Source of the DNA: Schmidtea polychroa
Lineage: Eukaryota
Direction of reading: 5' to 3'
Assembly: GCA_044892525.1 (NCBI GenBank)
Contig: CM097885.1
Span: 72,602,001 to 72,666,000 of the forward strand
Length of the DNA stretch: 64,000 nt
Shown one piece after another: positions 48,902 to 62,778 of this stretch (positions within the stretch are counted from its first letter, which is position 1; every line of letters starts with the position of its first letter). Made by a program: the position numbers and the translations under genes. The notes beneath the pieces were generated by a model. It ran no database searches. It saw only the letters and a program-made list of their open reading frames with translations, and was not told the origin of the DNA.

Positions 48902-51900
48902 ATGACGAATGTGGTAAAAACCGACGAATATAAAGAAAAATTTAGAGGCGAACCGTTCAACGGGAATGCGAACAAGTTGGCAACGTTCATAACAAATTTT
49001 GAAGTCTATATCGATGTGTGCGGATGGACAGCGGAAGCAATTAGTAAACGAATGCCTCTGTTTTTATGTGATAGCGCATTAGAAGTGTACTTAGAAGCTA
49101 AAGAAAGGAATACGAAGTTAGACAATTGGGAAAGCATCAAAACATTCTTGAGGAAAACTTTCGGAGCCAGCAAACCAATAAATCAAGCCCTAGGAGAATT
49201 AGCGAGTAGAAAACAAAGAGCAAATGAATCAATAACGTTATACGCAAGTGAATTGCGAAGATTGGCAAAGAAGGCCATGAACGGAAACTTGCCGGAGGAA
49301 AACTTAATTGGTTACTTCATAGAAGGACTGCGCCGGGAAGAGGTAAGGGCCTCGGTGGGATGTCAAATGTGTAAAACACTAGAAGAAGCCATAGATTGGG
49401 CCACAAGATGCGAACTACACCTCCCTGCACAAATGAATGTCATGCAAGAGGAGGGAAGAATCGCAACAGCAACGGTGAAAACGGAAAATGGAGATAACAA
49501 CAATCATGAACCCAAGATGAATCAGTTTATACCAGGAGCACATCAAATCTTCAAACCACCACAAGGACGAGCAAACGGGAATAACAGTGAACGCAACAAC
49601 TCGAACAATGGGAACAACTTTAATAATCGACGAAATATGAACGATAACAAACAATGCCGAACATGCGGTAAACCAGGACATTGGGATAGAGATTGTTACC
49701 GAAACGCAAATTGCAATAGGTGTGGACGACGAGGACACACGGAAAATATATGCCAATTGAGAGGATGTTTTAACTGCGGTCAACCAGGTCATATCTCAAG
49801 AGACTGTCGAGAAAGGAGCCAACAACAACGACCACCACAGCGAAATAATAACTATGCACCAAATCCGCAACGACAAAGTAATCCTAGTGAGGGAAAGCAA
49901 ATGAATGTGATGCAAGAAATTTCACAAATGAAGCAGATGATGCAACAAATGATGAGACCGAGACAAGAGCAAGTACCACAACAAACCCAGAATATACGCA
50001 TGATGAGGAGCACCGAGAATCTTAACAATTATGAAGTGCAACAACATGCACAAGAATGGCAAAGACTACAAGCTGAAGAAGAGAGGATAAAAAGAGAGCG
50101 AATTCAGCAGCGACAAGAACAACCATTACGAATAAATATGATGAGAATGGTAAGGGAGATAAAAGAGCAATATTGTTACAATTACGGTAAAAATCCAAGA
50201 GTTGTACCTATGAGCGAACCAGAGAAACCGAAAGAAACAATTACAGCAGCAAAAAAGGAAAATTCAGCAACACCGCTGAAAGGAAATCAGAGAATTCAGA
50301 AAATATTTTGGAAAAAGATAAAAGATAAAATCGAAAGAGAAAATGAGAAAACAAAAACAGAAGCAGAAGCAGAAAATAACGAAAATGAAAAACAGATTAA
50401 TCATCTAAATCATGATATGATACGAGAATTAGACTCAGAGGAGCTAACGATACTCGAGAACAAAAAGTTAAAGAAAGTACCAAGAATGAGAAATTTACGA
50501 ATTAATATGATGAGGACAACAAGGAAGGTGTTGTCAACAGATGACGAGGAGGATTATGTGAGTAGCCTTGGTGGAGAAATGTTACAGTTAAATGAAAATA
50601 TCGACCAACTAAGAGAAAAGATCGGAGCAGATGAGGATGAAAGTGAAAGCGACGTGACAAGCGAAAGCGAAGACGAGAATATCGAAATGAAATTGAGAAA
50701 AGAAAGAGAAGAAGCGATAAAACAAGTAAAGGAAATACTTCCAGTGGTGGTAAGAAACCAGGAATTCATTGACATCATACCATACAGACGCTTCATACAA
50801 AAGATAATGAAACTGGAAAGAAACGAAAAAGATTTAATACCAAGCGAGGAGAAAGCGATAATAAAGAAGTATATGGAAAAAATGAAACAAGCGGAGACAA
50901 CACGCTATGTAATAAAAATCGGAACGAGTAAAGGACTCGAGAGAATATGGATAAAAAATGCAGTTACAGACGATCTTTTCGATTGGATAAGAGAACATTT
51001 GGGCAGCTCGAGAAAGAAAGAATACCTGTATCAATATCAAGGAGAACAAATCAAACCAGACAGGCACCTAATAGATGCATTGATCTGGCCAGGAGAAACT
51101 CAAATATTGAAATTGCATAAAGAGAAGCAACCAGCAAATATTCACGAATGGGCTAAAGACGCCAAGGCCGAGTATGACTTTAACATCAAGCTGAAGCTGG
51201 AACAAATAAAACAATGCACCTTGCGACGAAATCTAGATAAATTAATCAAACAAATCCAAGAACAAGTTGAAGATAACTGGGATTTGCTCATAACAAGACG
51301 AACTGCAGACATGCATGAACTAATGAGCCGACTGCGAGATACAGAACTGCTCCGAATGAGTGATTGGAGAACCATAAATTTGATCCACAAATATGGAAGG
51401 TTGAAAGAAACGCAACCGCAGAAATTGGAAATAACCATATGGTTACCAAACGAGGAGAAACGACGAATAAAAATGAGTAACCAGAGTACGGTGGACGATT
51501 TAGTATCAAAGATAAACCGAGAGATAACGGAAAAAGTACGAAGCGAGAGCAGCGATGGTATGATAGATGACGTAGTCATGATGTACGATAAAATAATACT
51601 ACGGGCTGAAGACGATACCTCATTAAGCGAAATGGGAATGTGGGATAATCACCAAATCATTAGAATATTGCCCATGGACGAATTCCGAACAAGAGATGTA
51701 ACATACCAGAAAGAGATAAGAGACAGGATGAAAACGCTATACCAAAAATCAGTGGAGATAATTGAAATTCATCAACAATGGCTAAAGGAAAAAGAGCTTC
51801 AAGGAAAAATAAAGAAACTGAGTACCAGATCCTGCAGACGAACTCCCTGGGAAAGGATGTGGAATGCGGAAAACAAAGAATGGGAAATCAGGAAAGGGAT

Positions 51901-61800: not shown

Positions 61801-62778
61801 ACAATGGTGGAAATGATAACAGCCCAGGGAGGAATGAGAACGATAAAAGAAGCCAAAGAAACGGAAAATAAGGACAACAAAGAGGAAGAACTAAAACAAG
61901 AAAAGAAAAAGCAAGTACAAGAGCAGCAATGGGATCTAAAAGAAGAATGGGATTTAAAAGAAAGGTGTATATTAGGAAGATGTATGTCTAGAGCTTATCA
62001 GAGACTAGTGTTAAAAAATGAAGATGCAGAACCAATAACGGAAGTGGGAATACAAGAAGCGTACCAACATCGAAACGGGAAGAAGATAACAAAAGTCAAA
62101 TGGAAAGAGGTACACCTGAGTAAAGGAGGGGAAATAGTGATAACACAGCTTCAACCAAGAAAAGAGCACAAAGTGTGTATTTCAAGGCTAGGCCCAGGAG
62201 AAAATTGTCTACAATATGTAACGCAACAACAACCACCAAAGGAATATACGGTATGTATCCTGAGAAACGGCCCAGAAAGAGAATGTCGACGATACCCTGG
62301 GAAAAGAGGGAAGAAAAGAAAAATCAATGATGAAAAAGATGAGCAAGGAAGACGCAAGAAAACCAGTGAGAAACATCAAGACAATTATGTATCCGAGGAG
62401 GAGATGGAGAAAATACAAAAAATGGCAAAGGAAGGTATGAACGAGGAAATAGCAAGAATACGAGGAATGATGAAAGGAAATGGCAAAGACGGTAATCTAA
62501 AAAGCACAGAAGCAATATCAACAATAACGAACAAGGAAAAAGCGGAAATTATAAGCGTAAAACAGATGATGTGGATCAGCGGCATAATAATAACAGGGGC
62601 CTTTTTAATCATAACGGGGGGGACAATAAAAATAATCAAAGATAGACGGCATCGCGGAGAACTAGAAATGACCAGAATAAGAAATTTTCAACATCGTGTA
62701 AAACGACCAAGTAATATCAAGCAGGAACAGTGGGTGGAGGCCTGGAATGCTCAGCGCCCTCCAAGCTCACGTATATAG
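58708..62778 (+). CDS. Polyprotein segment 5: integrase core and GPY/F, two ankyrin-repeat blocks, and a C-terminal signal-ectodomain-TM protein
   Basis: LTDQGTNF, YHPQTNGMTERFN, GKGPYEI; GDTPLH, GYTPLMIA, KNALHHA, RTPLQQA, GETAMMYA; hydrophobic MMIMILVLTMVEMITAQ and WISGIIITGAFLIITGGTIKII. Confidence 0.92.
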   Translation: MVITDYLTKFPEAFAMADQKARTIAKILVEEICCRYGTPKQILTDQGTNFMSEIMSEVTNYFKIAKLRTSPYHPQTNGMTERFNGTLIQMLSNYVDRHQRDWDEYIKLCLMAYRMSIHASTKMSPFKLMYGRECNMPMDLEYQPPISQYMEIDDYVTKFKERMQEIWETAGLNIKFYQESYKELHDRKKNVKQHTFQTGDWVMIETPELIPGTTKKLQRNGKGPYEILFIGETNVRVRLVNNPFTRPIYVNVARCKPIPKTATSQPEGRTLTTRSQTYRINMLQQINEPTGNRLGLQPSEAEKIIKEVKAKMPGWAKDRLDFEILGGLLTMIENYANRERTHPLLRVVKSQWPILFTITDHYGDTPLHKLLKVGNNEQILETIEAFRDCNISTDQENNQGYTPLMIAANRDKAKDIIIALLETGSKITTQDHNQKNALHHAIEGKSTEAFIILVDLLSYEDNREIGNMYDGLLTAIKEKLITIAGLLIAWRNPIKNDYMVDINETFTKGENTLMREAMRGHHLFEIPNQLLQRGIKFSNHKDEQLIRKRITNFEKAISQFTDKVQVKFWETVSVLYMMETMNNIRETYLSIIQVLTAEERINNSNKKKIKIKKITAREAEKQVNQIISDIATTSKPKIINSDQEIVVRKAKEVFLEEMQDLSDEAILAKITKTVLTYARDQTTNLDIEKIKTFIPLAFTLPTKDSRTPLQQAILAAKENRAITIIRILRDFGEESNAKNEQGETAMMYAAITNIHPKTLHILHRSGSRLDEISNEGNSTIDLATIQPNLEMIRFICKNATRTEVENICKNTSQFQWNTIRMNLEAMKLLLTWKIPQSNKYAININEFYENGENAMVKNTLTKGGTPKIIMIVLNREDLKFTQNLNEQKRIGKHRRIQLRELVKEWNRKRHVATGRKEFEFEAKLARNRVLTAYRRLLNDINVEDDILNDSGGDKDDKDDDNNEKGRNGNKEKEKSEENNQENNDASRKKEENNPGNRMKQEEKTKSGKQRVCLLFTNKEMETNMMIMILVLTMVEMITAQGGMRTIKEAKETENKDNKEEELKQEKKKQVQEQQWDLKEEWDLKERCILGRCMSRAYQRLVLKNEDAEPITEVGIQEAYQHRNGKKITKVKWKEVHLSKGGEIVITQLQPRKEHKVCISRLGPGENCLQYVTQQQPPKEYTVCILRNGPERECRRYPGKRGKKRKINDEKDEQGRRKKTSEKHQDNYVSEEEMEKIQKMAKEGMNEEIARIRGMMKGNGKDGNLKSTEAISTITNKEKAEIISVKQMMWISGIIITGAFLIITGGTIKIIKDRRHRGELEMTRIRNFQHRVKRPSNIKQEQWVEAWNAQRPPSSRI

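Follow-up and report, generated by a model that had tools for sequence, protein, structure and literature searches.

A damaged copy of a probable Burro-type giant element in Schmidtea polychroa

In a 64,000-nucleotide stretch of Schmidtea polychroa DNA (the window; assembly GCA_044892525.1, contig CM097885.1, positions 72,602,001 to 72,666,000), five long open reading frames (ORFs) follow one another from 48902 to 62778. Do they represent one broken gene, or ORFs joined by programmed recoding? An earlier reading of the sequence alone had proposed a single ancestral gag-to-C-terminal ORF, recently inactivated, and the contigs of other copies and single-ORF relatives support that proposal. Along the polyprotein, Gag and three CCHC knuckles come before ubiquitin-like and Bcl-2-like parts and a chuvirus/gB-type fusogen; then come protease, a dUTPase-like part, reverse transcriptase (RT), RNase H, integrase and ankyrins, followed by a second membrane protein. 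The element very probably belongs to the Burro/GYPSM1 (GAG-ENV-POL errantivirus) type of giant Ty3/gypsy long terminal repeat (LTR) elements and has many near-identical copies. Members of the family would encode one polyprotein of ∼4,620 aa, and this copy would have gained one stop and three frameshifts after insertion.

The reading frame and its four breaks

The plus strand from 48902 to 62778 is tiled by five stop-to-stop ORFs: 48581-52927 (frame 2), 52843-55020 (frame 1), 55021-56493 (frame 1), 56454-58865 (frame 3) and 58663-62778 (frame 1). Between them lie three frame changes and one in-frame stop. Stops number 0-1 per 500-nt bin in the coding frame and 5-25 in the other frames. These counts and the ORF calls confirm the tiling of 13.9 kb with four lesions that was first read from the sequence. 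From the ATG at 48902 to the last stop at 62778, the whole polyprotein gene (Gag-Env-Pol-cargo, broken at four places) measures 13,877 nt or ∼4,620 codons. The Gag N-termini of relatives align from ∼48902, and a search for an earlier Gag start or a fifth break upstream found no support for either.

Break 1 (frame 2 to 1) lies in the overlap 52843-52927 and is placed near 52894 by the contigs of other copies. Break 2 is an in-frame TAA at 55018-55020, within RFV*PVTRI of the envelope ectodomain. Break 3 (frame 1 to 3) lies in the overlap 56454-56493 and is placed near 56480, again by other copies' contigs. Break 4 (frame 3 to 1), which the same contigs place at 58693-58708, lies inside a TA run and splits the integrase. 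The element contains no N letters; the sole N run of the window is at 7669-7849. "Only four" refers to frame-breaking lesions, as at least eight other substitutions private to this copy occur in 52500-59200.

Over 52500-59200 we compared contigs from 4 of the 17 runs listed, each run belonging to a different study. Rare variants get lost in contigs, and the window itself may derive from one of the runs, so this comparison describes the family and not the reality of the breaks in the animal. The sequence-only reading had named a stop or frameshift fixed in all copies as the sign of recoding or separate ORFs; the stop of break 2 was absent from all 29 covering contigs (21, 2, 5 and 1 per run), which is 100% of depth. 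At break 1, nine contigs of run X1 and one of run X8 differed in length from the window, X5 gave no cover, and X7, at depth 9, showed no difference. For break 3, 12, 6, 2 and 1 contigs per run differed in length (52-100% of depth). At break 4 the numbers were 4, 7, 0 and 1 (14%, 17%, 0% and 48% of depth). Other copies thus lacked the stop and differed in length at all three frameshifts, at break 4 only in part (0-48% of depth). Short contigs ending inside a run cannot reveal a length difference, and break 4 is therefore the least settled. Contig depth was unbroken across all 30 bins. X1 gave 9,366 contigs on the 6.7 kb, of which 2,638 reached at least 99%; this is not a copy number. Multiple highly similar copies, a criterion for errantiviruses of the GAG-ENV-POL HSV (herpes simplex virus)/gB type, were found.

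In public assemblies, envelope and pol occur in one protein in P0001, P0002, P0196, P0031, P0035, P0039, P0044, P0045, L002 and L003. In relatives, a single ORF of 3,865-4,844 aa combines envelope, protease, RT and integrase; P0001 (a cluster of 20) has 4,029 aa, P0002 3,865 aa and P0196 4,844 aa. All 15 long envelope relatives align through the stop position, and in all seven that reach the integrase core the numbering continues unbroken through break 4. At break 3, the distance from protease to RT is preserved in P0002 and P0035. Gag or knuckles stand in the same protein as the envelope in P0002, P0032, P0036, P0037, P0045, P0050 and L003. IMG/VR scans yielded no relative. The absence of the stop from other contigs, the length differences at the frameshifts and the single-ORF relatives together argue against programmed recoding and for breaks peculiar to this copy (or to its assembly).

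Some features of the relatives are recorded here for themselves. P0001, P0002, P0196 and L002 have several additional protease-like domains, with up to six matched stretches in P0196. Between envelope and pol, P0196 and L002 contain an additional hydrophobic segment or pair of segments. An accessory ORF of L002 (10617-12104), 3′ of the polyprotein, matches an RNase_T exonuclease (E 1.4e-5). P0035, an in-frame-envelope polyprotein, is annotated in a Flavobacteriaceae metagenome-assembled genome, probably through eukaryotic contamination of the bin.

The variant analysis covered 40 differing places out of about 1,300. Thirty-one variants were shared with some other copies, and 26 of these fall on third codon positions, counted in the frames of the window (p 1e-8). 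The nine variants private to this copy, stop included, are spread 3/3/3 over the codon positions (Fisher p 0.007 against the shared ones). This is the pattern of purifying selection on the frame of the family and of neutral decay in this copy, and it supports the recent inactivation proposed earlier. Between 4 and 6% of single changes would create a stop, so that one stop corresponds to decay of roughly 0.15%, with an upper 95% bound of close to 1%. Nine private changes in 6.7 kb set a lower bound of 0.13%. By these estimates the copy is young.

Several points weigh against this account. The comparison of copies was made by contigs only; none spans the stretch, and none is known to stem from the individual that gave the window. 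The length difference at the frameshifts was seen in part of the depth only. No relative aligns over break 1, where continuity rests on the ten contigs and on the relatives that have Gag and Env in one protein. In the relative L001 an in-frame stop (3058-3060) separates the Bcl-2-like part from the envelope signal; this stop is either a lesion or a readthrough variant of another lineage. We saw no LTR pair or target-site duplication, and no direct repeat pair within the window. The BIR and MATH domains of Burro were not found up to the window end at 64000, past which the element continues inside a TRAF-like ORF. Finally, the topology and processing steps given in the last section are ones that we infer.

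According to the strongest rival, errors of the assembly produced some or all of the breaks, and the copy is intact in the animal. We consider it unlikely as a whole, though it is compatible with membership in the Burro type. Break 4 lies in the only (AT)n of at least four units in the coding region, and break 3 adjoins two 3-base runs. Such runs are typical places for consensus errors, and it is for the TA-run break and the break near 56480 that an assembly error is most plausible. The stop was in none of the contigs compared, as an error would be; a single-copy lesion is also expected to be missing from contigs, which lose rare variants. On the other side, break 1 lies outside any homopolymer, and the ORF has 588 A-runs of three or more, none of which has a further frame break. 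The stop is one of at least nine private substitutions spread evenly over codon positions, as in neutral decay. In assemblies, substitution errors are rarer than run-length errors. As the first reading of the sequence had already allowed, an error may account for break 4.

Recoding between gag and pol is frequent in LTR elements. The junctions could accordingly be sites of frameshifting or stop readthrough that set Gag:Env:Pol ratios, and two observations fit: break 3 lies between protease and RT, and L001 has its stop before the envelope signal, though at a different place. We regard this as very improbable. The overlaps of breaks 1 and 3 contain no X-XXY-YYZ heptamer, and overlap 4 has one only 3′ of its break. 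No stable RNA structure was found 3′ of the stop (z -0.61). Breaks 2 and 4 interrupt the envelope ectodomain and the integrase core, and the stop is absent in other copies. A fixed break with a slippery site or 3′ structure was not found at this locus.

Domain order and comparison with described elements

All features below are on the plus strand. Gag (48902-49807) matched Retrotrans_gag (PF03732, E 6.9e-10) and the zinc knuckle family (PF00098, E 4.4e-12), with three CCHC knuckles at 49655, 49712 and 49766 in a motif scan. A ubiquitin-like module at 52361-52600 matched PF00240 below the cut-off (E 0.015) and aligns with P0001 (E 7e-5); L001 matched PF00240 with E 0.0047. A second, weaker ubiquitin-like module lies at ∼51401-51700. 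Directly 5′ of the envelope signal is a Bcl-2-like domain (53260-53640; PF00452 E 0.025 from the window alone). A four-sequence profile of this domain matched Bcl-xL with E 1.2e-4, and all 60 of the 60 rows listed were Bcl-2/Bcl-xL chains. A two-sequence profile was not significant (E 0.92), the ESM Atlas gave no usable match, and a single-sequence model (predicted local distance difference test score, pLDDT, 53) gave generic helical matches only.

An internal signal-like hydrophobic stretch at 53698-53757 (hydropathy 2.05 over 11 residues) ends in small residues, and an equivalent stretch is present in relatives; its end is a putative signal-peptidase site. The envelope that follows (53758-55620, transmembrane segment 55438-55494) is a Monjiviricetes (chuvirus-like, gB-type) fusion glycoprotein. 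It matched PF24664 on either side of the stop (E 5.9e-42 and 8.2e-23), and had been overlooked when the ORF was first read. The envelope profile had no sequence match in the PDB, and identity to long database matches is at most 42% over at least 400 residues.

The aspartyl protease (56095-56370; IDTGA at 56134) matched PF00077 with E 1.4e-8. Between protease and RT lies a dUTPase-like linker (56484-56759). Its evidence is weak: all five PDB matches of a three-sequence profile were dUTPases, with a best E of 0.076, and there was no Pfam match. RT (YIDD at 57354) and RNase H occupy 57033-58085 (PF00078 E 6.4e-37, PF17917 E 6e-40). The integrase (58407-59490), with H2C2 zinc domain, core and C-terminal part, matched PF17921 (E 2.8e-21) and PF00665 (E 2.4e-10). 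Two ankyrin-repeat blocks follow at 59764-61161 (PF12796 E 7.6e-20), and P0196 also has ankyrin matches. A long-protein search for integrase plus ankyrins gave 26 matches, none with both parts. A plant-thionin Pfam match (E 0.003, 18 residues, below the cut-off) was rejected as a chance cysteine likeness.

We compared this order with Burro/GYPSM1 by description only. The description is taken from the parts covered of Arkhipova and Yushenova (2019, PMC6431247), who review Jurka 2007 and Grohme et al. 2018. There, planarian ORF1 of Burro/GYPSM1 has 4,873 aa, and 5,140 aa in another planarian. It contains Gag, CCHC knuckles, Ubi2/SUMO-like, BCL2-like, env, a dUTPase-like part between protease and RT, ankyrins, BIR and MATH. 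The env is akin to mononegavirus fusion proteins and follows gag in frame, ahead of pol. The review also mentions copies in decay that have stops and frameshifts.

The window element is alike in having one very long ORF (∼4,620 codons), Retrotrans_gag followed by CCHC knuckles (three here, two or three in Burro), and ubiquitin/SUMO-like (weak here) and then BCL2-like parts before env. It also shares the mononegavirus-like env in frame between gag and protease, a dUTPase-like part between protease and RT (a weak match here), the order protease-RT-RNase H-integrase with ankyrins, accessory ORFs with ubiquitin and apoptosis domains, and tandem repeats (PMC6431247, same parts). It differs in its neighbouring ORFs, upstream one with an IAP-type RING and downstream one that is TRAF-like, with BIR and MATH not in the part seen. 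Its C-terminal membrane protein goes unmentioned in the Burro section of that review, as far as covered. Unlike Burro/GYPSM1 as published, the window copy is broken. The first reading had treated the length as surprising for an LTR element. Length and layout are already published for Burro/GYPSM1, so this surprise is much smaller: the element type is known, and what we describe is one young, damaged copy.

GAG-ENV-POL errantiviruses with gB-type env are reported from flatworms, nematodes and bryozoans, with six in S. mediterranea, in the parts covered of Chary and Hayashi (2026, PMC13524379). The window element shares with them a Ty3/gypsy pol, a gB/Chuviridae-type env and the gag-env-pol order. 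Envelope domains I-II are ∼57% identical to those of Smed_errantivirus_5 in the supplement of that paper (107 of 187 ungapped positions, counted by eye). This element is closer to the window envelope than any long database match. Together with AT-rich flanks, the closeness points to a probable planarian host. Identity among the six S. mediterranea elements is 27-64%, and the 57% found here points to another family or another species. The main text of that paper, figures not covered, does not contain "polyprotein", "in-frame", "Burro", "Bcl", "ankyrin" or "fibronectin".

LTR retrotransposons with a captured chuvirus-type glycoprotein are also described from mosquitoes (Dezordi et al. 2020, PMC7642597, covered in part). 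Unlike the Ty3/gypsy element of the window, these are BEL/Pao, and a giant in-frame Gag-Env-Pol with cargo is not described in the part covered. BURRO1 transcripts are under PIWI control according to the part covered of PMC8532177.

That an ordinary gypsy gag-pol received a chuvirus-like glycoprotein, as an endogenous viral element, and host genes by chance at this locus is hardly credible: the envelope does fit a negative-strand RNA virus family model and resembles hundreds of stand-alone 650-700 aa glycoproteins, but the same order recurs in many independent proteins, the RTs of nine in-frame-envelope elements group at 98/97 against seven others (a small, chosen outgroup, with two long branches), contig depth is continuous over the 30 bins, and the layout is published for planarians (PMC6431247, in the parts covered).

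Flanking ORFs and other features of the window

Upstream of the polyprotein, an accessory ORF at 46166-46645 (+) encodes a coiled coil and an IAP-type RING (PF13920 E 1e-8; cIAP/XIAP RING E 1.4e-9) and probably belongs to the element. Membership is uncertain for the ORF at 44419-45180 (+), which lies behind an acceptor-like site and has a paralogue at 27526-28299. Downstream are a short coiled-coil-like ORF of no family (62920-63306, +) and an accessory ORF with a TRAF-like RING and zinc fingers (63396-64000, +; TRAF6 E 5.7e-15), cut by the window end. The leader contains a 73-bp tandem repeat in five copies with 98% matches (47244-47607, +). Acceptor-like sites lie just before ORF 44419 (at 44418) and upstream of gag (at 48322), and a 24-nt stretch is duplicated around a donor-like site after the candidate promoter (42034-42120). 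The accessory ORFs may be expressed by splicing.

A candidate 3′ part of the 5′ LTR lies at 41990-42624 (+), with CCAAT/TATA/initiator-like motifs at 41990-42050, a CA end at 42602-42603 and a primer-binding-site-like TGG from 42606. This end was read from the sequence, where 16 CA-TGG sites were listed in all; a tRNA primer-binding site following the 5′ LTR is a trait of the GAG-ENV-POL errantiviruses. Should the candidate promoter near 42000 be part of the element, the element is at least about 22 kb long; the published Burro/GYPSM1 criterion is a long LTR pair and a total above 30 kb (PMC6431247, in the parts covered). An inverted pair of arrays of 14-bp units lies just upstream of the candidate LTR region (40672-41245).

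The regions 27526-28971 and 44419-47161 are collinear. Their ORFs are 54% identical over 116 aa, a common motif (28705-28742 and 45493-45530) lies ∼300-400 nt downstream of them, and a 16-mer recurs exactly at 28956 and 47146. The pair is either the leader remnant of another giant element or a separate small mobile unit.

Conserved non-coding repeats of ∼250 nt, 71-84% identical and with no Rfam match, lie at 19-259, 19661-19912, 25412-25664 and 29203-29432; one is directly behind a coiled-coil ORF (19058-19603). A ubiquitin-like fragment at 5068-5454 (-; E 3e-8) and a tetraspanin-like exon at 34372-34752 (+; E 1.2e-6) are probably pieces of host genes. In the whole window, Rfam gave no matches and ARAGORN no tRNAs.

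The C-terminal membrane protein and a proposed working of the polyprotein

By hydropathy, the polyprotein ends in a second membrane protein (61777-62778, +), with a signal-like stretch at 61777-61833, an ectodomain, a transmembrane segment at 62581-62637 and a short tail. In all nine in-frame-envelope polyproteins that extend past the integrase (the window's own and those of eight relatives), two or more hydrophobic segments follow it, and the last one lies 2-115 residues from the end. Such segments occurred in 1 of 12 other long gypsy-type proteins, most of which have short tails and thus form a weak control.

Part of the C-terminal ectodomain (∼61972-62310, +) is fibronectin type III (FN3)-like by profile matches. 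An L-x-P-x-T-x-Y-like motif is common to six ectodomain stretches and is weakest in the window. The profile of these six, which were selected for the motif (P0039 lacks it; L002 and L003 were left out), matched mostly FN3 proteins, namely the FN3 domains of neogenin, CD45, Dscam, Tie2 and fibronectin, with a best E of 1.4e-4. The window has no Pfam fn3 match. A low-confidence fold model (pLDDT 39.5) gave beta-sandwich matches of Z 4.5 or less, with cytokine-receptor chains on top, and was not used as support. In pairwise alignment of the ectodomains only P0196-P0031 reached E 4e-4, and none with the window did. A search with the C-terminal 340 aa, limited to near lengths, found 0 of 974 candidates, and the ESM Atlas gave no usable match. 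The FN3 identity is a lead. We found no description of the protein in the literature on Burro, GYPSM1, gag-env-pol or FN3 with gypsy env, although figures, Repbase entries, subscription papers or bioRxiv supplements may have one. It is possibly the only new part of the element.

The hydropathy series runs signal-like stretch, envelope transmembrane segment, (integrase and ankyrins), second signal-like stretch, C-terminal transmembrane segment. Gag and the ubiquitin-like and Bcl-2-like parts would be made in the cytosol. The internal signal, which may double as the tail anchor of Bcl-2, would send the class III envelope ectodomain into the endoplasmic reticulum, and host signal peptidase would sever it from Gag. 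The envelope transmembrane segment would bring the chain back to the cytosol, where protease-RT-RNase H-integrase-ankyrin would hang on the envelope tail. Pol would then reach particles with Env and not as a frameshifted Gag-Pol, and Gag, Env and Pol would be made 1:1:1 without recoding. The second signal and transmembrane segment would set free a small surface protein. If the series is taken as signal and stop-transfer segments in turn, the chains would be Gag-cargo (∼1,620 aa), Env-Pol-ankyrin (∼2,690 aa) and the surface protein (∼315 aa).

The element protease would free the cytosolic units, perhaps at an I/M-N-x-hydrophobic motif. This pattern was picked after inspecting the data; it recurs at polyprotein domain borders from 49433 to 61750 (8 against 1.1 in shuffles), and its sites are candidate protease sites. 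The Bcl-2-like, IAP-RING and TRAF-like cargo would act on host apoptosis and ubiquitin signalling.

Burro-type elements might then be two-glycoprotein enveloped retroviruses made as one multi-pass polyprotein, a model that we put forward tentatively and consider rather less than even in its chances. In it, a conserved second type I membrane protein with a fast-diverging FN3-like ectodomain would be the receptor-binding partner of the class III fusogen, as gD/gH stand beside herpesvirus gB. After the signal-peptidase cuts, Pol would stay tethered to the envelope tail and be packaged by Env, not Gag.

The finding is useful for annotation. It also joins the description of Burro with that of the GAG-ENV-POL errantiviruses; in the text covered, neither cites the other. 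How gB-type errantiviruses enter cells is stated to be unknown, since herpesvirus gB requires partner glycoproteins (PMC13524379, in the parts covered). The C-terminal protein would be a concrete, testable candidate for an attachment partner of this fusogen.

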